A stretch of 64,000 nucleotides of DNA from Candidatus Nitrospinota bacterium M3_3B_026 (GCA_051418015.1 JBPRGF010000009.1:1-64000); one strand, 5' to 3'; counted from the first letter of the stretch, positions 1,190 to 56,221 are shown. The notes: generated by a model from the letters alone, not told the origin. A program made the numbers and translations.

Positions 1190-2932
1190 ATGCGCGAAAG
1201 AGATGATGTAAAAGTGGCCGAGACCGCCGGCTTCTGCTGGGGCGTCAAGAGGGCCATGGACATGACCCTGGAGACCGCCAGGAAGGCCGCCGGCCCTATT
1301 TACACCCACGGGCCGCTGATCCACAATCCCCAGGTCATAAAGATGCTGGAAGGCAAAGAGGTCTACGCCGTGGATGACGCCGCGGCTCTCGACGGCGGCA
1401 GGGTGATAATCCGCACCCACGGCGTGACGCCGGAGGCGAGGTGGAGCCTGAAGGCCAGGGGCCTGGCCATAAGCGACGCCACCTGCCCGCTTGTCGCCAG
1501 GGCGCAGGGGATCATCAAGAAGCACGCCGGGCGCGGCTACACCACGGTGATAATAGGTGACGCCGGCCACGCGGAGGTCATCGGCCTGATGGGCTACGCC
1601 AACGGCCGCTGTCACGTGATAAACAACGCCGATGACGTGGACAACCTTCCGCCCATGGACAAGACTCTGGTCGTGGCGCAGACGACCTGCGACGTCTCCA
1701 GGTACAAGGAGGTTTTAAGGAGGGTCAGGGAGAGGTTCCCGGACGCCGTGGCGCCGGAGACGATCTGCGACGCGACGGAGCAGAGGCAAGCCGAGGTCAT
1801 GGAACTGGCCCGCCGGGTGGACGCCATGGTGGTGGTCGGCGGCAAAAACAGCGCCAACACGAACCGGCTGGCCCAGATCGCGCGGGAGGCGGGAGCGAGA
1901 ACTTTTTTGATAGAGACCGAGGATGAGCTGGACCCGCGCGAGATATCCAAATACGAGCGCGTGGGGCTGACCGCCGGAGCCTCTACCCCCTCGTGGATGA
2001 TCCAGAGGGTCCGGCAGCGGCTCGAGAGCATAAGGTCCGGAAAGCGTGGCGGGCCCGCCGCGTGGCTGGGACGGGTGGTGGAGGGCGCGGTGGTCGGCAA
2101 CGTGAGCGTCGCCCTTGGCGGGGCGCTGATGGCGTTCGCCAACATGACCCTGGCGGGGCTTGATTTTTCATGGACGGCGGCGTATATCGCCGGGGTGTAC
2201 CTCTTCTCGATGAACGCGTTCAACCGGCTCAACGACGTCCGGACCTTCAGGCACAACGAGCCGGAGAAGATAAGGTTCTATCTTGCCCATCGCGGCCTGA
2301 TGACCGGCGCGGCCCTGGCGGCGGCGCTGTCGGCCCTGGCGGCGGCCTTCACCCTTGGAGCGGCGGTCACGGCGGTGGTGGCTGGAGCGCTGGGGCTGGG
2401 GCTTGCCTACACGGTCAAGTGGTTCACGGGGAGCAAGGCGCTGCGCGTCCATCGCCTGAAGGACATCCCCGCGTCGAAGGACATGTTCGTCGGGGTGGCG
2501 TGGGCCGTGTTGACGGCAGTTGTCCCGGCGATGGCGGCGGGGGCGGACGTTTTTTCCGCGACGGTGATGGTTGTGTTTTTTTTCACATTCGGCCTGGTGT
2601 ACATCCGCTCCGTCCTGTCGGATATCCGGGATATCCATGGCGACAGGCTGGTGGGCAGGGAAACCATCCCCATCCTGATCGGCGACGCCGCCACGAAGAT
2701 TTTTTTGGTTTTCCTCACGGCGGGTCTTGCCGGTCTTTTGTTCGCCTCGTCATACGCGGGGCTTGTATCCCCGTTCGGTTATCTTATGCTCGCCTCCGTG
2801 GCGTACACGGCGCTGTACCTGGCCCTGTACCACGCCAGGGTGATAAACCGCGGATTGGGTTTCGACCTGATGGTGGACGGGGTTTTCCATTTCTCCGGCC
2901 TGCTGGCGATTGTCTGGCGCCTGGCCGCGTGA
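1190..2932 (+). CDS. ispH: 4-hydroxy-3-methylbut-2-enyl diphosphate reductase IspH fused to a C-terminal UbiA-family prenyltransferase-like polytopic membrane domain
   Basis: N-terminal 280 aa have IspH/LytB hallmarks (AGFCWGVKRA, ICDATEQRQ, GGKNSANTNRL); C-terminal 300 aa are multi-TM with a DIRDIHGDRLVGRETIPILIGD Asp-rich motif (UbiA second motif) and a degenerate first motif NRLNDVRTF. Confidence 0.7.
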   Translation: MRERDDVKVAETAGFCWGVKRAMDMTLETARKAAGPIYTHGPLIHNPQVIKMLEGKEVYAVDDAAALDGGRVIIRTHGVTPEARWSLKARGLAISDATCPLVARAQGIIKKHAGRGYTTVIIGDAGHAEVIGLMGYANGRCHVINNADDVDNLPPMDKTLVVAQTTCDVSRYKEVLRRVRERFPDAVAPETICDATEQRQAEVMELARRVDAMVVVGGKNSANTNRLAQIAREAGARTFLIETEDELDPREISKYERVGLTAGASTPSWMIQRVRQRLESIRSGKRGGPAAWLGRVVEGAVVGNVSVALGGALMAFANMTLAGLDFSWTAAYIAGVYLFSMNAFNRLNDVRTFRHNEPEKIRFYLAHRGLMTGAALAAALSALAAAFTLGAAVTAVVAGALGLGLAYTVKWFTGSKALRVHRLKDIPASKDMFVGVAWAVLTAVVPAMAAGADVFSATVMVVFFFTFGLVYIRSVLSDIRDIHGDRLVGRETIPILIGDAATKIFLVFLTAGLAGLLFASSYAGLVSPFGYLMLASVAYTALYLALYHARVINRGLGFDLMVDGVFHFSGLLAIVWRLAA

Positions 2933-2993: not shown

Positions 2994-3263
2994 ATGGATA
3001 TGAAGATAATCGGGCCGGTTTTCGCGGCAGTGTTCCTGGCCGAGTTCGGCGACAAGACACAGCTTGCCACCCTCGCCTTCGCAGGGGCTGAATCTTCCCG
3101 GTGGAGCGTTTTCGCCGGGTCGGCGGCCGCCCTGGTAACGGCGTCGGCCATTGCCACGCTGGCGGGCGCCGCTGTCTACCAATACGCCCCGGCGTGGGTT
3201 GTGAGGAAGGCCGCCGGAGTATTGTTTCTTGTTTTCGGGCTGTTCTATCTTGTCAGGAGCTGA
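2994..3263 (+). CDS. UPF0016/GDT1-family small membrane protein (single-domain bacterial form)
   Basis: EFGDKTQ signature motif (E-x-G-D-K-T), 90 aa, two to three hydrophobic helices. Confidence 0.6.
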   Translation: MDMKIIGPVFAAVFLAEFGDKTQLATLAFAGAESSRWSVFAGSAAALVTASAIATLAGAAVYQYAPAWVVRKAAGVLFLVFGLFYLVRS

Positions 3264-3304: not shown

Positions 3305-4222
3305 CTATCTCTTCCTTCGCAGCGCTTTTTTCAACGCCCAGCCGATATTCCTTTTCTCCTTCGGCGCCGTCATGATCCACTCGGAGAGCGCCGCCACGCG
3401 GCAGTGGTTCGAGACGATCCCTCCCTCGGTGAGGTTGTAGAAGTCCGCGGGGCCGTTTTTGCGTTTCCACGTTGTGAAAGCCCACTCCATCCATTGCTTG
3501 GTGATGAACAGGCTCTTGCGGGTGAGCACCTCCCGTCCGAAGATGTCCACATCCTTTACCATGTCGTCGCCCTGGCCAAAATCGTCCCGGCCCTCGCGCG
3601 CCCCGGCCGCCCTCGACGAATAGGCCGGGCCGCCGGGGGGGATGGAGAGGTCCTGCCCCAGGAAGCCTATCGGGTTCGCGCCCATCCTGAAGGCGAGGTC
3701 CAGCCCCACCGTGAGCACGGACCCACCGGGGATCAGGTATCCAAGCGCCGGGTTTTCCGCGGCTATCTTGACCAGCGCCGGTATGTCCGGGGCGAACTTG
3801 TTGTAGAAGACCACCTCCCCTTCCCATGCCGCCAGAGCGTCTGGGTGGATGATGGTGGGGGCGGCGAGGATTTTTCCCTTTGACGGCGCCCCGGCGAAAA
3901 AGCGCGCCACGTCCGGCTGCGGGTCCAGGGTGACCACGATGGAAGGCTCGGCCCCCTCCTCGGCCAGCCCCGCGAAGATCGCGTCGACGCATATGATCAG
4001 GGCCCTGCCCCGGGCCATGGACAGCCACTGGACGTTCTTGTCCAGGGAGGGGCCCGCGCCCACGACAAGGGAGGGGACACCCGGGAACTTTTCGAATAGC
4101 GCCGCCACGCCTGTGGAGCGGGCTATGGCGCTCCGGTTCGCCTCGAAGTTGGCCGTCCACAGCCCGGCGAAGCTGCGGATGGTGGCGTTCTTGACCTCGA
4201 ACAGCCGCTGGTGATCAACCAT
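3305..4222 (-). CDS. DUF115 / MptE-like (motility accessory factor Maf-like) protein
   Basis: SLVVGAGPSLDKN glycine-rich motif and overall architecture typical of DUF115 proteins associated with flagellin glycosylation. Confidence 0.5.
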   Translation of the reverse strand: MVDHQRLFEVKNATIRSFAGLWTANFEANRSAIARSTGVAALFEKFPGVPSLVVGAGPSLDKNVQWLSMARGRALIICVDAIFAGLAEEGAEPSIVVTLDPQPDVARFFAGAPSKGKILAAPTIIHPDALAAWEGEVVFYNKFAPDIPALVKIAAENPALGYLIPGGSVLTVGLDLAFRMGANPIGFLGQDLSIPPGGPAYSSRAAGAREGRDDFGQGDDMVKDVDIFGREVLTRKSLFITKQWMEWAFTTWKRKNGPADFYNLTEGGIVSNHCRVAALSEWIMTAPKEKRNIGWALKKALRRKR

Positions 4223-7240: not shown

Positions 7241-9378
7241 CGGTCTCCTTGTCTTGCGATGTCAGAGGACGGCGCGGTCTTTTCCCTATCCACGCCGCCT
7301 GTGTAGATGAGCCGGTAAAGGGCTAGGTTGCGCTTTACCTTTTTCACGTAATCCCTCGTCTCGGAGTAGGGTATCATCTCCACCAACTCGTCGTCGTCGA
7401 GGTTTCCATACCGTTCGCGCCACTTGTCCGCCGCCGATTCGCCTGCGTTGTAGGCCGCGAGGGCCAGCGTCAGGTTCCCCTCGTATCTTGCCAGCAGGCC
7501 CGAGAAATAGGCCACGCCCAGGGGAATGTTTACATTAGGGTTGAAAAGGAGCCGCGGCGCGAAAGGCTTTCCGGTCTTCTCCGGCATCCCCGTGTTCTCG
7601 TAGACCCGCCTGCCCGTCGCGGGGATGATCTGCATCAGCCCCCGGGCGTCGGCGGGGGAGAGAGCGGCGGGCTCGAAGGCGGACTCCTGCCGTATGATGG
7701 CAAGCGCCAGGAAGGGGCTGACACCGTGCGTCCGCGCCTGCCCGGCGACGTTTTCCCAGTGCTCCACCGGATAATAGGCCCGCCAGGACGGACCGGAGAA
7801 ATCCAGATCCAGTGGGCCTCCGTGGTTCGCCACGAGCCGTATCGATCTGCCCGGCGCGCGCGCCCTGCGGTATTGAAGCGCAAGCCACAGCGCCTCTTCA
7901 GGGCTCCGGGTCAGGCGCCTGGAGAGGGCGTCGAGCTCAAGCCTGGCCTCGCCGTACATCTCCATCTCCACCAACGCCTCAAAGCGCCTGCGGCGGCGTT
8001 CGGCTTCCTCGTCAAGCGCCACGCCCACAGGCTCCATGCGCCCGCTCTCGTCCGGCTTCAGCGACATGACGCCATTCACGGGACGCGGGTCCGGAGGTCC
8101 GGTCAACATCCGTGTCCCGTAATAGGTATGGGGGAATCTTCCCTTCAGCTTTTCGCCCATGCGCTCCCCTCCGGCGGCGTCCCCGGCGCGCGCTTTCGCC
8201 CTCGCCGCCCAGTAGAGGAATTTTCCGTCGGCGCCGGTGTTCCTCGGGTCGCGGGAGAATTTTTCAAAAAGCCTCGCCGCCTGAGCGTGGCCGCCCTCCT
8301 GGTATTTCGTCCACCCGATCCTCCACATGATGTCGCGGGCCAGCCTGGGGTCGGGCGAAAGCTCCAGCGCCGCGGCGTATTCCTCCCCCGCCTCGCCAAG
8401 CCTGCCGGCGGATTCGGCGATCCTGCCGAGGACGTAGCGGGCGCGGGCCCTGACCTGCCGTCCGGCCCCGGAGGATGCGAGCTTCTTGAGCCTTTGCGCT
8501 GTTTGGGCGTTTTTGTCATTGTTCCAGTCGATCACGGCGATCCGGTAGTCGGCCATATGGGCGAGCCCCGAGCCTGCGTAGCGCCGGATCACCTCCTTGA
8601 AGACAGCCCTTGCGCCCGTCCTGTCCCGCGCCCTGTACTTGACCATGCCAAGCTTGTAGAGGGCCTTGGCCTTGCGGCTCTCCGAGTAGCCTATCTTCAG
8701 TATCCGCTCCAGCTCCACCGCCGCGTCGGAGTAACGAAACGCCCTGTAGAGCCGCTCCGCCCGGCCCATCCTCTGGGAGAAGGTGGCGTAAGGATAGGCG
8801 GACTTGCCAGGCGGCGCGCCTTCCTCGCGGCGAAGGCGTATTGTTTTTTCGATGATTTCCCTGTCGATGGCGGGGTCGGGATAGTCGTAATAAGCCCGCT
8901 GGTAGAGCCTGTACGCGGCGGCCTTGCGGCCGAGGGGCTCCATCCTGCGCGCCTCCATGTAAATCCTTTTCGCGCGGAATTCGGCGGGGACCGCCTCCAC
9001 GCCTATGCTCTCAAGGTATCCGCCGCACGTCTCGGAGGAGACATCGCCGCAGGCGGCGAGGAGGCGGAGCTTGTTGACCGTGGCGGCGAGGGGGCTTTTG
9101 GGGAAGTTTTTGACGAGCCTGTCCAGCGCCGGCAGGGATGCTGTGAGTCCCTCTTTTCCCTTCAGTACGGAGGCGAGGTCGCGCATGGCATAGTCGCCCA
9201 GGATGAAGGAGGGGACGGCGAGTTTTTCGAGTCTTTCGATCGCCTCTTCCGCCGCGCCGTCTTCCAGGAGCGCGCGGGCGGCGCGGTATTCATCCAGTCC
9301 GGCGGCGAAAGACGGGACGGCGGCCGCCAGCGCCGCCATGAGCGCAAGCGCCGCGGGCCTAGCGAACCAGTATTCCAT
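7225..9378 (-). CDS. Soluble lytic murein transglycosylase-like protein (TPR-rich N-terminal region plus SLT catalytic domain)
   Basis: C-terminal LAIIRQESAFEPAALSPADARGLMQIIPATG SLT motif; signal peptide MEYWFARPAALALMAALAAA; start chosen at ATG 9378 (alternative 9405); 3-prime end overlaps the upstream gene by 16 nt. Confidence 0.75.
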   Translation of the reverse strand: MEYWFARPAALALMAALAAAVPSFAAGLDEYRAARALLEDGAAEEAIERLEKLAVPSFILGDYAMRDLASVLKGKEGLTASLPALDRLVKNFPKSPLAATVNKLRLLAACGDVSSETCGGYLESIGVEAVPAEFRAKRIYMEARRMEPLGRKAAAYRLYQRAYYDYPDPAIDREIIEKTIRLRREEGAPPGKSAYPYATFSQRMGRAERLYRAFRYSDAAVELERILKIGYSESRKAKALYKLGMVKYRARDRTGARAVFKEVIRRYAGSGLAHMADYRIAVIDWNNDKNAQTAQRLKKLASSGAGRQVRARARYVLGRIAESAGRLGEAGEEYAAALELSPDPRLARDIMWRIGWTKYQEGGHAQAARLFEKFSRDPRNTGADGKFLYWAARAKARAGDAAGGERMGEKLKGRFPHTYYGTRMLTGPPDPRPVNGVMSLKPDESGRMEPVGVALDEEAERRRRRFEALVEMEMYGEARLELDALSRRLTRSPEEALWLALQYRRARAPGRSIRLVANHGGPLDLDFSGPSWRAYYPVEHWENVAGQARTHGVSPFLALAIIRQESAFEPAALSPADARGLMQIIPATGRRVYENTGMPEKTGKPFAPRLLFNPNVNIPLGVAYFSGLLARYEGNLTLALAAYNAGESAADKWRERYGNLDDDELVEMIPYSETRDYVKKVKRNLALYRLIYTGGVDREKTAPSSDIARQGDRCSTC

Positions 9379-10330
9379 GGCGGTTCGTGAAATGGGAGAA
9401 CTCATCCAGATTCAGTATCCTACAGGCTATGCTCTCCGGCGTGTCCTCTTCGGCTACCGGGACGAAAACCGCGCCCTCCGCCTTGCGGAACCACGTGACC
9501 TGCCTCTTGGCGAACGCCCTGGTTTCCTTCTTTATGATGTCCGCGGACTCTTCAGGATCCACGGCCCCCTCGGCCTCTTTCAAAAGCGTTCTATAACCGA
9601 GGCTTCGCATTGGTTTTACCCTGTCATTATAACCCATCTCCAAGAGCCGTTTTACCTCCCCGCGCCATCCGTCCCGCAGGCTCTCCTCCACTCTGCGGTC
9701 AATCCGCCGGTAGAGGACGTCCCGGGGAGGGTCGAGAACCAAGAAGAGCGTGTCCCACTCGGCCTTAGCCGGGTTTTCCCGGAAAAACTCGCTTAAGCGG
9801 CGGCCGGTGGTCATGTATACCCCCACAGTCCTGCGCGTCCTGAAGGTGTCGTTGGGATGGATCCGCGCCGCCCATTCCGGGTCCACGGACACGGCGAGGC
9901 TGTACAACCCCTCCTGCCCCTCCCCGGCGGCGATCTCGTCCATCCTGCGTTCGGCCTCGGGGCTTATCCTCGCGCCGAGGTGGAGCGTCTCGACGAGGGC
10001 TTTTATGTACAACCCCGTTCCTCCGGCGACCAGGGGGACGCGACCCTTGCTCCAGAGATCCCGCGCTATCCTGCCCGCCTCTTTTCTGAACCTGGCGGCG
10101 GAGTAGTCCTCATCCGGGTCCGCCACGTCCAGCAGGTGATGGCGGACACGCTTTCTCAGGCTTTCGGAGGGTTTGGCGGCGCCTATGTCGAAATGACGAT
10201 ACACCTGGACGGAGTCGGCGGAGATTATCTGGGCGCCGAGCTTTTCGGCCAGGGCCACCCCCACCTCCGACTTGCCGCTTGCCGTCGGCCCCGCCAGGAC
10301 GATCAGCGGAGGTTTTCTCCCGTCAGGCAT
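9359..10330 (-). CDS. miaA: tRNA dimethylallyltransferase
   Basis: LIVLAGPTASGKSEVGVALAEKLGAQIISADSVQVYRHFDIGAAKP P-loop and MiaA signature. Confidence 0.9.
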   Translation of the reverse strand: MPDGRKPPLIVLAGPTASGKSEVGVALAEKLGAQIISADSVQVYRHFDIGAAKPSESLRKRVRHHLLDVADPDEDYSAARFRKEAGRIARDLWSKGRVPLVAGGTGLYIKALVETLHLGARISPEAERRMDEIAAGEGQEGLYSLAVSVDPEWAARIHPNDTFRTRRTVGVYMTTGRRLSEFFRENPAKAEWDTLFLVLDPPRDVLYRRIDRRVEESLRDGWRGEVKRLLEMGYNDRVKPMRSLGYRTLLKEAEGAVDPEESADIIKKETRAFAKRQVTWFRKAEGAVFVPVAEEDTPESIACRILNLDEFSHFTNRHGILVR

Positions 10331-18567: not shown

Positions 18568-20550
18568 ATGGAGACATTTTTGGGTCTGGCGCCGGTTGTC
18601 GGGATTCTGGGTCTTGGCGTGGCTTTCGGGCTTTACGCCGGCATCCTCAGGATCTCGCCGGGCAGCGAGAAGATGAAAGAAATATCGGAGATGATCCACA
18701 CCGGCGCCATGGTCTTCCTCAGGCGCGAGTACTCCATTCTTTCCGTGTTCGTCGTCGTGGTGTTTGTCCTTCTGTGGGTCTTCCTGGCCGCCAAGACGGC
18801 CATCGCGTTCATCGTGGGCGCGGCCTGCTCCATGCTGGCCGGTTTCATCGGCATGAAAGGGGCCACCAGGGCGAACGTGCGGACCTCGGAGGCGGCCAGG
18901 GATAAAGGCGAGGCCGCGGCCCTCAGCGTGGCCTTCTCCGGTGGCGCCATTATGGGCCTTTCGGTGGCCAGCCTGGGGCTCCTCGGGATCAGCGCCTTCT
19001 ACATCATATACGTGATGATGGGCTCGATGGAGGGGGTGACCTACCTGGCCGGGTTCGGGATGGGCGCCTCGTCGATCGCCCTCTTCGCCCGCGTGGGCGG
19101 CGGCATCTACACCAAATCCGCCGACGTGGGGGCCGACCTCGTGGGCAAGGTGGAGGCCGGCATCCCCGAGGACGACCCGCGTAACCCGGGCGTTATCGCC
19201 GACAACGTGGGCGACTGCGTGGGCGACACCGCCGGACTGGGCGCGGACATCTACGAGTCTTATGTCAACTCCGTGGTGGCCACCATCGCCATAGGAGCCG
19301 CGATGGGCGCCATGGCGCCGCAGTACATGGCCCTGCCGATACTGGTGATAATGATCGGCCTGGTGTCATCCCTGGTCGGGGTGGCCTCCATAAAGATAAT
19401 GAAGGGGCTGGACCCGGCCTCGGTCCTGCGCTATACCTCGTTCCTCGCGGCGGCGGTGATGCTGGCGGTTTCGTACCTGGCCACGGTCATGCTGGGGCTC
19501 GGCGTCAACGTATGGGGGGCGCTGGCGCTCGGCTGCGGCGCGGGGATCGCCATCGGGCTGATGACGGAATACTACACCGGCATGTTCAGTCCGGTCAAAA
19601 ACCTCTCCGCGGCGGCGTTGACGGGCCCCGCGACGATCATAATATCCGGTTTCGCCCTGGGTCTGGAGTCCGTCGCGCCGCCGGTGCTGGTGATAGCCGC
19701 CGCCACCTATTTCGCCGACAGCCTGGCGGGCCTCTATGGCATCGGCCTTGCCGCCGTGGGGATGCTGGCCACGGTGGGCATCACCATGTCCGTGGACGCC
19801 TACGGGCCGATCGCCGACAACGCGGGCGGAATATCGGAGATGGCCGAGCTGGGGCCGGAAACCAGAAAGATCACCGACGGGCTCGACGCCATCGGCAACA
19901 CCACCGCGGCTATCGGGAAAGGCTTCGCCATCGGATCCGCGGCGATGACGGCGCTGGCGCTCTTCTCCGCCTATACCAAAGCCGTGGGGCTCGACAGCAT
20001 AAACATTGTCGACGCCAAGGTCGTCATAGGGCTCTTCCTCGGCGGCATGATAACCTTCCTGATCGCCTCTTTCACCATGACCTCCGTCGGCAAGGCGGCA
20101 AAGCTGATGGTGGAGGAGATACGGCGCCAGTTCCGGGAGATTCCGGGCCTGATGGAGGGCAAGACCAAGCCGGACCCGGCCACCTGTGTCGATATCGCCA
20201 CCGAAGCCTCGTTGAAGGAGATGATCCTGCCGGGTCTGACGGCGGTGATGACGCCGGTCGTCATCGGCTTTCTCCTCGGCCCGGAGGGCCTTGGAGGACT
20301 GCTGGCCGGCGCCACGGTCACCGGCGTCATGCTGGCGCTGCTCATGGCCAACGGCGGCGGCGCCTGGGACAACGCTAAGAAATACATAGAGTCCGGCCAT
20401 CACGGCGGCAAGGGGTCCGACGCCCACAAGGCCGCCGTCGTCGGCGACACCGTGGGCGATCCCTTCAAGGACACCTCCGGCCCGGCGATGAATATCCTCA
20501 TCAAGCTGATGTCGATAATATCGCTGGTGATCGCGCCGTTGCTCGTCTGA
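18568..20550 (+). CDS. hppA: Membrane-bound proton-translocating pyrophosphatase
   Basis: 660 aa, about 15 TM helices; [19 protein letters not shown] and [16 protein letters not shown] motifs characteristic of V-PPases. Confidence 0.92.
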
Positions 20551-37211: not shown

Positions 37212-39296
37212 ATGCCCGGAAGATCGAGGAAAACAGCTAAAGGGCTTTTCGTAACGGGAACGGACACCGGCGCCGGCAAAACCGCCGTCGCCGCGGCGCT
37301 GGCTTTCATCCTGCGGGAGGAGGGCTACAGCGTCGGCGTCATGAAACCCGTCGAGACGGGAGCGAAAAAACGGGGCGGAAAGCTCATCGGCGCGGACGCG
37401 GAGATTTTGATGAAAGCCGCCGGGGCGCCGGACCCGTTGGAGATCGTAAACCCGTACCTTTTCAAAAAACCACTCTCCCCCTGGCACGCCGCCTCCGCCG
37501 AGGGAGCGCGGATCGACATCGGGCGGATAGCCGAACTTTTCGATGAGCTTTCCCGGCGGCACGACATCGTAATAGTCGAAGGCGCGGGGGGGCTTCTGGC
37601 CCCCGTCACGGCGGAGGTCTCCATGGGGCGGCTGGCGAGAAGGCTCAATATACCGGCCCTCATCGTCGCCCATCCATATCTCGGGAGCATAAACCATACC
37701 CTGCTGACAGCCAGGATGGCGGGCCTCATCGGGCTGGATATCGCCGGGATCGTGTTCAACCAGAGCAAAAGGCGCAGGTTCCCCGAGCCGGATTTCGATT
37801 TCATCGGCAGGGAGGCCGGAGCCGATGTCTTCGGCCTGATCCCATACACATCCTCCGCGCGAAACGTCCAAAAACTGGCGTCCCACGTCCGGCGGAGCGT
37901 GGACGTGGAGGGACTCATCGCCAGGCTGAAAAGCCTGGCGCCTAAAAACCTCCAGAAGTCATACGAGGAGCGGGACAAGAAATACGTCTGGCATCCGTTC
38001 ACGCAGATGAAGGAGTGGATGGAAGAGCCGATCGTGGTCGTGGAGTCCGGCGACGGGATAACCGTCCGGGACGTCCGGGGCAGGGAGTTCATGGACCTTT
38101 TTTCGAGCTACTGGTGCAACGTCCATGGCCACGGCGACGAGAGACTCAACGCGGCCATAGGCGCCCAGCTCGGCAAGATATCCCACTCCACGTTCCTCGG
38201 CCTGTCCAACGTCCCCGCCGTGGACCTGGCGGAGAAGCTGGCCGAGATAACCCCCGAGGGGCTCGACAGGGTCTTTTACTCCGACGATGGATCAACGGCC
38301 GTGGAGGCGGCGCTGAAGATGAGCTACCAGTACTGGCGGCATACGGAGCCGCGCTCACGAAGGGACAGGTTCATTGCCGTGGAGGGCGCCTACCACGGCG
38401 ACACCATGGGGGCCATGTCCGTCGGCGGCATAGACATCTATCACGAGGTGTTCAGGGATCTGCTGGCGAAGACGGTTTTCGTCCCCCCGCCCTACTGCTA
38501 TCGTTGCCCCATCGGCAAGTCCTACCCCGACTGCGCCATCGCCTGCGCGGGGCTGATAGACGAAGCGCTCGCGGCCAATGAAGGACGGGTCGCGGCGATG
38601 ATAATAGAGCCGCTGGTGCAGTGCCCGGGAGGGATCATCACCGCGCCCCACGGATACCTGAAACGCGCCGCGGAGGCCTGCGCCCGGCACGGCGTCCTGC
38701 TGATCGCCGACGAGGTGGCGGTGGGGTTCGGCAGGACGGGGCGGATGTTCGCCTGCGAGCACGAGAGTGTCCGGCCGGACATCATGACGGTCTCCAAGTC
38801 GATAACCGGCGGGACCATGCCCTTCGCCGCCACCATCGCGTCGTCGAGGGTCTTCGACGCCTTCTGGGGCGACTACAGGGAGCTGAAAACCTTTTTCCAT
38901 GGCCACACCTACACAGCCAACCAGCTTGGCGCGGCGGCGGCGCTCGAGAACCTGCGGCTGATGGACGAGCGCGACATCATCGGCCAGGCGCAGGAAAAGG
39001 CGGCGGAGCTTTCCGCGGTGCTGGCCCGGTTCCAGGACCTGGAGCATGTGGGCGATGTCCGGCAGAGGGGGCTTATCGCCGGGGTGGAGCTGGTGGCGGA
39101 CAAGGAGACGAAAAAAACCTACCACTGGACCGAGAGGATGGGCGCCAGGGTTGTCTTGGAGGCAAGAGGGCGGGGGTTGCTGGCCCGCCCCCTGGGCGAT
39201 GTGCTCGTCCTTTTCCCCGCGCCTTTCGCCTCCATCGCCGAGGTCAGGAAAATGACCGATATCCTCTACGATTCCATAGCCGCCGTGACGGAGTGA
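37212..39296 (+). CDS. bioDA: Bifunctional dethiobiotin synthetase / adenosylmethionine-8-amino-7-oxononanoate aminotransferase (BioD-BioA fusion)
   Basis: N-terminal GTDTGAGKT P-loop (BioD) followed by a class-III aminotransferase domain (WHPFTQM..., HGHTYTANQLG) in a single 694-aa frame. Confidence 0.85.
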   Translation: MPGRSRKTAKGLFVTGTDTGAGKTAVAAALAFILREEGYSVGVMKPVETGAKKRGGKLIGADAEILMKAAGAPDPLEIVNPYLFKKPLSPWHAASAEGARIDIGRIAELFDELSRRHDIVIVEGAGGLLAPVTAEVSMGRLARRLNIPALIVAHPYLGSINHTLLTARMAGLIGLDIAGIVFNQSKRRRFPEPDFDFIGREAGADVFGLIPYTSSARNVQKLASHVRRSVDVEGLIARLKSLAPKNLQKSYEERDKKYVWHPFTQMKEWMEEPIVVVESGDGITVRDVRGREFMDLFSSYWCNVHGHGDERLNAAIGAQLGKISHSTFLGLSNVPAVDLAEKLAEITPEGLDRVFYSDDGSTAVEAALKMSYQYWRHTEPRSRRDRFIAVEGAYHGDTMGAMSVGGIDIYHEVFRDLLAKTVFVPPPYCYRCPIGKSYPDCAIACAGLIDEALAANEGRVAAMIIEPLVQCPGGIITAPHGYLKRAAEACARHGVLLIADEVAVGFGRTGRMFACEHESVRPDIMTVSKSITGGTMPFAATIASSRVFDAFWGDYRELKTFFHGHTYTANQLGAAAALENLRLMDERDIIGQAQEKAAELSAVLARFQDLEHVGDVRQRGLIAGVELVADKETKKTYHWTERMGARVVLEARGRGLLARPLGDVLVLFPAPFASIAEVRKMTDILYDSIAAVTE

Positions 39297-54784: not shown

Positions 54785-56221
54785 ATGGAAGACCGCTTCA
54801 GCAAAAACCTTGCCATAGCGGACCGGCGTTTCCCCGCCGCGGCGCGGGCGGCCAGGTCGGCGGACGATTCGATAACCCTGGTACCCTCGAAGTCCGGCGC
54901 GATGACCGGCAGGGCTGGCGCCGTGTGGCTCGCCAGCCGCTACGACCCCGTCCGCGAGGCGGAGACCTTCGCGAAGGGGCAGGACATAAAACCCGGCGCC
55001 AGCGTCGCCCTTTACGGCGTCGGGCTCGGCTACCATCTGCGCCCACTGCTCGACGCCGCCGGCCCCGGCGGAAAAGTCATGGCGGCGGAGGCGAACGGGG
55101 CCGTCCTGAGGGCGGCGCTCAAGATCATCGGCCCCGGCGTTCTTGAAGACCCCCGCCTCGGGATCGTGGCGGCGCCGGGCAAGGAGGAGTTCCTTTCGTT
55201 GTGGGCGGATGCGTTCGGCGCCCTGGACGGGCGGGGGGCGAAGGTGGTGGTCCATGGCCCCTCCACGAGGGCCATCCCCGCCGGGTTCGAAGATGTCTCG
55301 AACGCCGTGGAGATGATAAGGATAGACAGGAGATTCCCTTTCGTCATGGGACCCCTGGAAAGGGAGAACCTGGGCCGGAACCTCCCCAGGCTGCTGCGCT
55401 CTCCCGGCGTCGGCCGTCTTGCGGGCCTGTTCCGGGGCGAACCTGTGGCCATAGTAGGCGGCGGCCCCTCGCTGGATGGGCAGGCGGCGTTTTTCGCGTT
55501 CCAGGACAGGATGCGTATTTTCACGAGCGACACGGCCCTGCCGGCGCTTCTCGAACACGGCGTGGAGCCGGACCTGGTGTTCAGCGTCGACCCGCAGGAA
55601 GACTCCCTGCTCCACTTCGTCCTTGCCGGACGGTTCGACCTGCCCCTTGTCCTGACGCCGACGGCCTGCGCGGGGCTGGTGGAACGCTGGGAAGGGCCGC
55701 TGATCTTCGGCTTCAAAAGCCCGGACAGATATCCGGCCCCGGCGGACCGGTGGGCGGAGAGGATGGGGTCGTTCGAATCCGGCGGGTCCGTCTCCTGCGT
55801 GGCTTTCGAGACGGCGCTCATTTCGCGCGCTTCAACTGTTATCATGCTGGGGCTGGATTTCGGCGCCCCCGGCGGGCGTGGCTACGCCTCCGGGACGGCG
55901 CCTGACATCCTCGGCGCGGCGCCGTGGAACCCTAAGGAGACCGTCATGGAGAAAAACTGTTTCGGAGAGGATGTCCCTTCGTCGGCGCTTTTGAACTCCT
56001 ACCGGAGGGAGTTCGAAAGACTCGCCGCCGGGGCGGACGCCCGGGTGGTGAACATCTCCGGACGGGGCGTTCGCGCCGATGGAGTTCAAGCCGCGCCGTC
56101 TCCCCTGCCTTATATCGCCGACGCCGGAAGGAAGGGAAGGGCGGATTTCAAAAAATTTCAACCGGAGCCCGCGGGAGGAGATGTCGCGCAGGCGTTTGAG
56201 AAATGGCTGAAAGACTCGTAA
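54785..56221 (+). CDS. DUF115 / MptE-like (motility accessory factor Maf-like) protein, second copy
   Basis: VAIVGGGPSLDGQ glycine-rich motif and DUF115 architecture; paralogous to 3305..4222. Confidence 0.5.
   Translation: MEDRFSKNLAIADRRFPAAARAARSADDSITLVPSKSGAMTGRAGAVWLASRYDPVREAETFAKGQDIKPGASVALYGVGLGYHLRPLLDAAGPGGKVMAAEANGAVLRAALKIIGPGVLEDPRLGIVAAPGKEEFLSLWADAFGALDGRGAKVVVHGPSTRAIPAGFEDVSNAVEMIRIDRRFPFVMGPLERENLGRNLPRLLRSPGVGRLAGLFRGEPVAIVGGGPSLDGQAAFFAFQDRMRIFTSDTALPALLEHGVEPDLVFSVDPQEDSLLHFVLAGRFDLPLVLTPTACAGLVERWEGPLIFGFKSPDRYPAPADRWAERMGSFESGGSVSCVAFETALISRASTVIMLGLDFGAPGGRGYASGTAPDILGAAPWNPKETVMEKNCFGEDVPSSALLNSYRREFERLAAGADARVVNISGRGVRADGVQAAPSPLPYIADAGRKGRADFKKFQPEPAGGDVAQAFEKWLKDS

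Follow-up and report, generated by a model that had tools for sequence, protein, structure and literature searches.

Proteins in which IspH is joined to a UbiA-type membrane domain have been described as "Rosetta stone" proteins (Rao, O'Dowd, Li, Wang, Oldfield 2015, Chem Sci 6:6813, PMC4746011). That study collected 47 IspH-UbiA sequences, found 'primarily' in Desulfobacterales and 'all in sulfate-reducing anaerobes', and classed the UbiA half as CDD PT_UbiA_5 with its function unassigned (PMC4746011). Nine transmembrane helices, modelled on ApUbiA, and 'two DXXXD repeats' were reported, and it was proposed that the UbiA domain places IspH at the membrane, leading to a high local supply of IPP and DMAPP (PMC4746011). 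Expression of full-length IspH-UbiA failed and only a truncated protein was obtained; fusions of IspH to RPS1 were described in the same paper (PMC4746011). A literature search covering IspH-UbiA, PT_UbiA_5 and anammox ispH returned no follow-up beyond this 2015 study.

Three further systems serve as points of comparison. IspH-RPS1 (NF000907, PRK00087) likewise begins with a complete IspH and is likewise about twice as long as IspH by itself, but its C-terminal partner consists of soluble S1 RNA-binding repeats instead of a membrane domain. UBIAD1 of animals, which belongs to the UbiA family, binds HMG-CoA reductase and is responsive to GGPP. This complex (PDB 8djm) is non-covalent, regulatory and part of the eukaryotic mevalonate pathway, and is used here as an analogy only, whereas IspH-UbiA links its membrane domain covalently to an enzyme of the MEP pathway in bacteria. 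The archaeal proteins of solved structure, ApUbiA (4od4/4od5) and AfUbiA (4tq3), are stand-alone proteins with a complete NxxxDxxxD first motif, whose own physiological substrates are uncertain.

Here we analyse a gene in a 64-kb stretch of Nitrospinota DNA, referred to as the window. Its product is a member of the published IspH-UbiA family, having IspH at the N-terminus and UbiA at the C-terminus, a length of about 580 residues, three conserved cysteines and a predicted nine-helix UbiA domain, and it comes from a previously unreported lineage, being Nitrospinota-like and not from the sulfate reducers of Rao et al. 2015. The preliminary description of the locus knew of IspH-RpsA fusions only and thereby implied that the architecture was novel. 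This does not hold, as IspH-UbiA was published in 2015 beside IspH-RPS1 and with the same rationale of local IPP and DMAPP supply (PMC4746011); the fusion architecture itself is not new.

The fusion gene and its continuity

The fusion occupies positions 1190..2932 on the plus strand, a single reading frame that comprises 580 codons and a stop. A GTG at position 1214 on the same strand is an alternative start, which would yield a form of 572 residues, the one recorded as P0001. In the full-length protein, the Pfam LYTB model (PF02401) covers residues 7-279 over its whole length (1-267/267) with 313.9 bits, and PF01040 (UbiA) covers residues 307-548 with 59.1 bits against a gathering cut-off of 34.2. 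When the C-terminal half was scanned alone, PF01040 reached 61.4 bits against the same cut-off. The NCBIfam equivalog TIGR00216 (ispH_lytB) is matched at 292.1 bits, its cut-off being 187.85. The reading of the locus as an in-frame fusion of a complete IspH, placed in the first 280 residues, to a domain of the UbiA family is thus borne out. In contrast, the IspH-RPS1 model NF000907 scored 311.9 bits against a cut-off of 624 and aligned over model positions 3-279 only, leaving the S1 repeats unmatched, and membership of that family was rejected.

In an AlphaFold2 model of the fusion protein (mean pLDDT 87.7, pTM 0.70), nine long helices come after an IspH trefoil. The two halves are connected by a short, basic linker, SIRSGKRGG (residues 280-288; 2027..2053, plus strand), between the last IspH helix and the first transmembrane helix (TM1). 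At the linker pLDDT drops, and mean pairwise identity in this region (residues 281-304) is 20.5%, compared to 52.6% in the IspH half and 37.8% in the UbiA half.

A frameshift or misassembly that merged two neighbouring genes could in principle mimic such a gene, and at one related locus (L017) the halves do lie in different frames, which itself is probably a frameshift. The same architecture was however found in one open frame in 77 of 80 independent species-representative genomes from many assemblers and sources, the other two exceptions being interrupted by contig ends. In a search of 5.8 billion proteins, the 120 best homologues, ranging from 100% to 40% identity, all carry both Pfam domains and measure about 580 residues. 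Linker length is kept across homologues and the AlphaFold2 model is confident across the junction. Comparison with orthologues, which had been suggested as a check, thus supports continuity, and we reject an artefact with near certainty.

The IspH half

The IspH (LytB, HMBPP reductase) domain spans residues 7-279 (1208..2026, plus strand). The three ligands of the [4Fe-4S] cluster are present as C16 (1235-1237), C99 (1484-1486) and C193 (1766-1768), all on the plus strand, as are H45, H127, E129, T166, S221, N223 and S265. Across 283 homologues, the cysteine ligands and the catalytic and diphosphate-binding residues are invariant or nearly so. The trefoil of three alpha/beta domains expected of IspH is seen in the N-terminal half of the AlphaFold2 model. 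Judged by these features, the IspH half is complete and apparently functional.

The IspH halves of fusions from different phyla show 50-66% identity to that of the query, in comparison to 28-39% for solved stand-alone IspHs; the fusion may accordingly have arisen once. Sequence homology extends over the full length of distant members: loci from Thermodesulfobacteriota, Syntrophaceae and a 'delta proteobacterium' align over both halves, and with the Desulfobacterota locus L036, for example, the query shares 55% identity in the IspH half and 37% in the UbiA half. These Desulfobacterota comparisons were made with fetched genome loci.

The fused IspH could be a specialised paralogue feeding a dedicated pathway while a separate, stand-alone IspH performs the housekeeping reaction. 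Paralogy does occur in the family, since one Thermodesulfobacteriota MAG carries two fusion copies (L052 and L080) that are 71% identical. But tblastn detected no second ispH in the 64-kb window, and none was found within 10 kb on either side of the 80 related loci; the same searches found no second UbiA gene either. Together with the score above the TIGR00216 equivalog cut-off, the near-invariance of the catalytic residues in 283 sequences and the position of the gene amid unrelated housekeeping genes, outside any biosynthetic cluster, this makes a specialised paralogue improbable.

Conserved residues of the UbiA half

Residues 289-580 (2054..2929, plus strand) form a UbiA-superfamily intramembrane domain with nine predicted transmembrane helices and a cytoplasmic N-terminus. 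This agrees with the UbiA fold, for which about nine helices and an active site facing the cytoplasm are expected. According to the predicted topology, the active sites of both halves face the cytoplasm.

The first Asp-rich motif lies at the cytoplasmic end of TM2 and reads N345-RLN-D349-VRT-F353-RH-N356-E357-P358 (2222..2263, plus strand). It fails the NxxxDxxxD pattern: the query has N345-xxx-D349-xxx-F353 and retains just NxxxD. Among 283 sequences N345 is 95% conserved, position 349 is Asp in 64%, Asn in 20% and Glu in 6%, N356 is found in 80% and E357 in 57%; P358 is present in 49 of 51 sequences. In the anammox/Planctomycetota loci D349 is replaced by Asn in 31 of 34 and by Tyr in two. 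At position 353, where the canonical motif has its third Asp, Asp is absent both from the commonest residues in the 283 sequences and from the lineage signatures listed. Glu occupies this position in all 12 Desulfobacterota loci, a third acidic residue absent from the other lineage signatures listed, and most other lineages have a hydrophobic residue. The preliminary description had called the motif NRLNDVRTF (residues 345-353; 2222-2248) degenerate. That it is non-canonical stands, but the change is a trait of the whole family and not a decay of this gene.

The second motif, at the cytoplasmic end of TM6, is canonical. It was located correctly before as DIRDIHGDRLVGRETIPILIGD (residues 478-499; 2621-2686), and its core reads D478-IR-D481-IHG-D485-RLVG-R-E491-T-I-P494 (2621..2671, plus strand), which passes the DxxxD test in its extended form, DxxDxxxD, as D478-xx-D481-xxx-D485. 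Conservation among the 283 sequences is 85% for D478, 85% plus 7% Glu for D481, 98% for D485 and 96% for E491, while G489 and P494 are invariant in 51 sequences. Motif 2 aligns with the chlorophyll synthase motif NDFKSVEGDRQLGLKSLP. In candidate division B38 (L003, L005 and L051), however, it is eroded to D-V-N with two of the three Asp gone, and the B38 members may on this ground be inactive.

Two more conserved elements were found. A cytoplasmic-loop segment preceding TM5, D-I-P-A-S429-K430-D (2462..2482, plus strand), contains S429 in 99% and K430 in 96% of the 283 sequences, the remainder having Arg at the latter position; by analogy with other enzymes of the UbiA type, it probably provides the diphosphate-binding Lys. 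D563 (2876..2878, plus strand) is an acidic residue in TM9 near the cytoplasmic face, with Asp in 92% and Glu in 7% of these sequences.

That so many charged residues are conserved on the cytoplasmic face speaks for binding of Mg2+ and diphosphate by the UbiA domain, which probably also catalyses transfer. The family-wide absence of the third Asp of motif 1, the replacement of D349 by Asn in anammox bacteria and the losses in motif 2 of B38 suggest at the same time that some family members may be inactive. Support for a different role comes from the change in motif 1 and from the erosion of the motifs in particular lineages: no longer mainly a transferase, the UbiA half may, in analogy to UBIAD1, anchor IspH in the membrane, take up a prenyl diphosphate as a ligand that modulates IspH by feedback, or do both. 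Against such an anchor or sensor speaks the conservation of D485, E491, K430, S429, D563 and N345, residues of the kind by which active UbiA enzymes coordinate Mg2+ and diphosphate. Motif 2 is wholly retained in most lineages, which favours catalysis, with the limit that sequence alone cannot separate binding from catalysis. We regard the anchor or sensor as unlikely.

Relation to named UbiA subfamilies

The C-terminal half matches UbiA-family NCBIfam models only, and each of them far under its cut-off. The best one is NF010117/PRK13591 'prenyltransferase' with 45.7-48.9 bits against a cut-off of 238, followed at a distance by NF009521 (21-24 bits against 296), NF004749 (MenA; 17.7 against 277) and NF005742 (14-16 against 313). 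With such scores, membership of MenA, DGGGPS, ChlG, HPT or PRK13591 was rejected. Among solved structures, none is close by sequence: the best match is ChlG at an E value of about 0.03, and ApUbiA and AfUbiA share just 14-15% identity with the UbiA half of the fusion.

The closest sequence models are those of the branch comprising DGGGP synthase, chlorophyll synthase and homogentisate phytyltransferase (HPT), together with NF010117, an uncharacterised model that we take to be archaeal. The motif-2 signature D-x-x-D-x-x-G-D-R-x-x-G-x-x-T-(I/L)-P is common to the fusion and this branch, and the N-E-P extension following motif 1 is reminiscent of the N-x-P-x-R-P found in the DGGGP synthase, chlorophyll synthase and HPT enzymes. 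The fusion differs from the branch in being without the third Asp of motif 1 and in being joined to IspH.

Distribution of the fusion

An alignment restricted to the UbiA half was used to scan GTDB at one genome for each species. Relatives were found in 212 genomes, a minimum that depends on the search patterns, and the 80 best of these were retrieved. The carriers closest to the window are Nitrospinota and MAGs from vent sites labelled 'Nitrospirae', with 51-64% identity in the UbiA half. Going by the names in the genome records, further carriers are Zixibacteria, Thermodesulfobacteriota, Syntrophaceae, 'delta proteobacteria' and candidate division B38, as well as every anammox genus sampled, i.e., Brocadia (including the complete genome AP021856.1), Kuenenia, Scalindua, Loosdrechtia and Wunengus. 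The family is common among anaerobic bacteria, and its range is much wider than the published 'sulfate reducers'.

Searching the UbiA half against 1.84 billion cluster representatives gave 1422 matches at E<=1e-3 and 491 at E<=1e-10. The best 150 comprise 91 full-length fusions, 23 proteins with a truncated IspH tail and 36 others, most of which are short matches that start within the linker or the domain and represent fragments of fusion genes. This UbiA clade is therefore almost always fused to IspH.

P0247 (307 aa) is a genuine stand-alone relative, itself uncharacterised. Its best model is PRK13591, as for the query, at 85.6 bits and again under the cut-off of 238, and its neighbours (DUF61, HVO_A0261/FilR1, Nre and an ATP-dependent DNA ligase) form a typically archaeal setting. 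Archaea, which have no IspH, rely on the mevalonate pathway. As P0247 is the nearest stand-alone relative examined, it is plausible that a bacterium acquired an archaeal-type UbiA which was then fused to IspH. Another short match to the UbiA half, P0265, is located on a contig of 2.8 kb.

Genomic neighbourhood

In the window, the fusion gene is flanked by a LuxR-type regulator (262-1125) on one side and by a small membrane protein of the GDT1/UPF0016 type on the other, which lies downstream on the plus strand at about 2994..3263 and matches Pfam GDT1 with 76.4 bits. Genes for an MptE-like protein, a GGDEF cyclase, an amidohydrolase, Slt and MiaA lie beyond these neighbours on the opposite strand.

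For comparison, 628 adjacent ORFs from 81 loci were clustered. The gene directly downstream on the same strand varies by lineage. It encodes a DUF502 protein in 36 Brocadiales/Planctomycetota loci, separated by a gap of about 30 bp, a DUF2268 protein in 10 Desulfobacterota loci, and a Methyltransf_2-type O-methyltransferase in 8 close Nitrospinota loci. GDT1 takes this position in 4 loci including that of the window; it was seen at L001 and at 3 other close Nitrospinota loci, with no other phyla represented, and is probably a lineage-specific neighbour functionally unconnected to the fusion gene. Within this set, no neighbour conserved between phyla was found, a near-exception being a GT2-type glycosyltransferase present at 22 Brocadiales loci and as two strays at other positions. 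Elsewhere in the 64-kb window, none of the DUF502, DUF2268, O-methyltransferase and GDT1 partners was detected, nor was a polyprenyl synthase. Given a downstream gene that changes with lineage and no partner common to phyla, the fusion gene behaves as a housekeeping gene and not as a member of a dedicated cluster, and its context offers no pointer to the acceptor.

The O-methyltransferase bears on one particular mode of action, the literal form of the channelling put forward in the preliminary description, in which the UbiA half takes DMAPP (or HMBPP) directly from the fused IspH and dimethylallylates a lipid, quinone or aromatic acceptor at the membrane. Its presence in eight close relatives suggests that the product in that lineage is hydroxylated or aromatic; it is, however, lineage-specific and missing from the window. 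The near-obligate fusion to a DMAPP-releasing enzyme would be most simply explained if the C5 product were the donor, and both active sites are predicted on the cytoplasmic face. On the other hand, DMAPP-using UbiA-family enzymes are known mainly from plants and not from bacteria. Taken together, direct channelling of C5 units appears quite unlikely.

Discussion

Starting from the observed architecture and residue conservation and from the modelled fold and topology, we consider it most probable that the fusion is a bifunctional, membrane-tethered IspH-UbiA enzyme, which would combine precursor supply and prenylation at one location and in equal dosage; we put the probability of this reading at about 0.6. 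The cytoplasmic [4Fe-4S] IspH domain would convert HMBPP to IPP and DMAPP in the last step of the MEP pathway. Tied to it by the short basic linker, the nine-helix intramembrane prenyltransferase of the UbiA type would have its putative active site (N345/D349, S429-K430, D478/D481/D485, E491 and D563) open on the same cytoplasmic face. With its first metal site altered, the UbiA half would still be catalytically active and would transfer prenyl groups from a prenyl diphosphate to a membrane or aromatic acceptor in a Mg2+-dependent reaction. Being fused would then serve to keep precursor supply and membrane prenylation in one place and to express them 1:1, and not to tunnel substrate.

Several observations count against the bifunctional enzyme. 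The motif changes described above, i.e., the family-wide lack of the third Asp, Asn in place of D349 in anammox bacteria and the losses in B38, weaken the case for activity of the UbiA half, as do its scores far under cut-off on all characterised NCBIfam prenyltransferase models. With no neighbour common to phyla, a pointer to the acceptor is missing as well. Most characterised UbiA enzymes take longer prenyl diphosphates of C10 and above, provided by separate elongating synthases. As IspH yields C5 units, only DMAPP as the donor would allow a direct supply. The failed expression of the full-length protein (Rao et al. 2015, PMC4746011) also weighs on this side.

In comparison to the 2015 paper, the present analysis adds a wider set of lineages, a near-obligate fusion, an altered motif 1 next to a conserved motif 2 and the lack of a neighbour shared across phyla. 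Because the architecture has already been published, it opens no new category; the residual value lies in the orphan membrane half and its occurrence in ecologically important bacteria. IspH is an anti-infective drug target, which lends a naturally membrane-bound IspH some enzymological interest. The wider range, the family-wide change in motif 1 and the relative in an archaeal context sharpen the question of function and give concrete sites for mutagenesis.

Nitrospinota are marine nitrite oxidisers. They and every anammox genus sampled are among the carriers of an orphan UbiA clade that is covalently tied to IspH in 212 or more species-level genomes. It is conceivable, though we hold it only as a tentative idea, that this clade makes a new C5-prenylated (dimethylallylated) membrane lipid or cofactor directly from nascent DMAPP, or that it is a membrane module which senses prenyl diphosphates and exerts feedback on the last step of the MEP pathway, comparable to UBIAD1 and HMG-CoA reductase. 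Either, if true, would be new to isoprenoid biology and would concern anaerobes and microaerophiles that are dominant in the environment.

Start codon, copies and variants of the fusion gene

The start of the fusion gene is ambiguous, with an ATG at position 1190 and a GTG at position 1214 as the two candidates. The identical database protein P0001 comprises 572 aa, consistent with the GTG start, and this codon is preceded by AAGAGA, whereas no clear Shine-Dalgarno sequence was found upstream of the ATG. The domains of the fusion protein are the same for either start.

Two metagenome-assembled genomes carry two fusion genes each. In the Thermodesulfobacteriota genome SMAG_U12230 the two copies (loci L052 and L080) share 71% identity, and in the Planctomycetota genome nzgw513 (L053 and L066) they share 85.5%. 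These pairs represent either real paralogues or mixed bins. The loci L045 and L047, at 97.9% identity, look like strain variants. Only a single locus, L017 (9006-10726) of the Nitrospinota genome LOGT_bin.0048, has the IspH and UbiA halves out of frame, with IspH at 9006-9839 and the UbiA reading frame, open from 9125, lying in different, overlapping frames. An assembly indel is the probable cause of this frame break, rather than a true division of the gene.

In the three loci from candidate division B38 (L003, L005 and L051), the second Asp-rich motif of the UbiA half reads D-I-W-V-I-Q-S-N-G instead of D-I-R-D-I-Q-G-D-R. Two of its three aspartates are thus gone; the IspH residues are all kept. 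The B38 fusion proteins may constitute a pseudo-enzyme lineage.

An unfused relative of the UbiA half

P0247, a stand-alone relative of the UbiA half with a length of 307 aa, is encoded at 4752-5675 of L086, a contig from a hydrocarbon metagenome. Since its surroundings on this contig contain the archaea-typical genes DUF61, FilR1, Nre and ATP-dependent DNA ligase, the nearest unfused relative among those examined appears to be archaeal. Archaea lack the MEP pathway.

Other genes in the window

The tRNA dimethylallyltransferase gene miaA (9359-10330, - strand; Pfam IPPT, 246.9 bits), whose product consumes DMAPP, sits on the strand opposite to the fusion gene, ~6.4 kb downstream. As unrelated genes intervene between the two, their proximity is probably coincidental. 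A membrane-bound H+-translocating pyrophosphatase is encoded at 18568-20550 (+ strand; H_PPase, 856.6 bits). The 694-aa open reading frame at 37212-39296 (+ strand) contains a dethiobiotin-synthetase-like P-loop domain at residues 10-215 (AAA_26/CbiA) and a class-III aminotransferase at residues 270-687; it looks like a BioD-BioA fusion, joining two consecutive enzymes of the biotin pathway. BioD-BioA fusions are known from plants. Two genes for MptE-like proteins (PF01973, DUF115) are present within the 64 kb, at 3305-4222 (- strand) and 54785-56221 (+ strand). The first of these adjoins the pair formed by the fusion gene and the small membrane-protein gene GDT1, an arrangement kept in four close Nitrospinota loci.

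Neighbouring genes in related loci

In all 36 Brocadiales/Planctomycetota loci, the next gene after the fusion gene, at a distance of ~30 bp or less and in the same orientation, encodes a DUF502 membrane protein, e.g., at 10855-11550 in L057 and 7645-8334 in L002. Upstream of the fusion gene and on the other strand, these loci share a conserved block encoding GT2, FolD, a HemN-like radical SAM protein, EF-P and polyprenyl synthase.

In the close Nitrospinota relatives L006-L011, L016 and L059, the gene downstream on the same strand encodes a small-molecule O-methyltransferase with a Methyltransf_2 and a dimerisation domain, which is absent from the 64-kb window. Its reading frame starts a median of 11 bp past the fusion gene (seven loci), and in L016 GDT1 is placed between the two. 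For this lineage in particular, the neighbour may hint at a product that is hydroxylated or aromatic.
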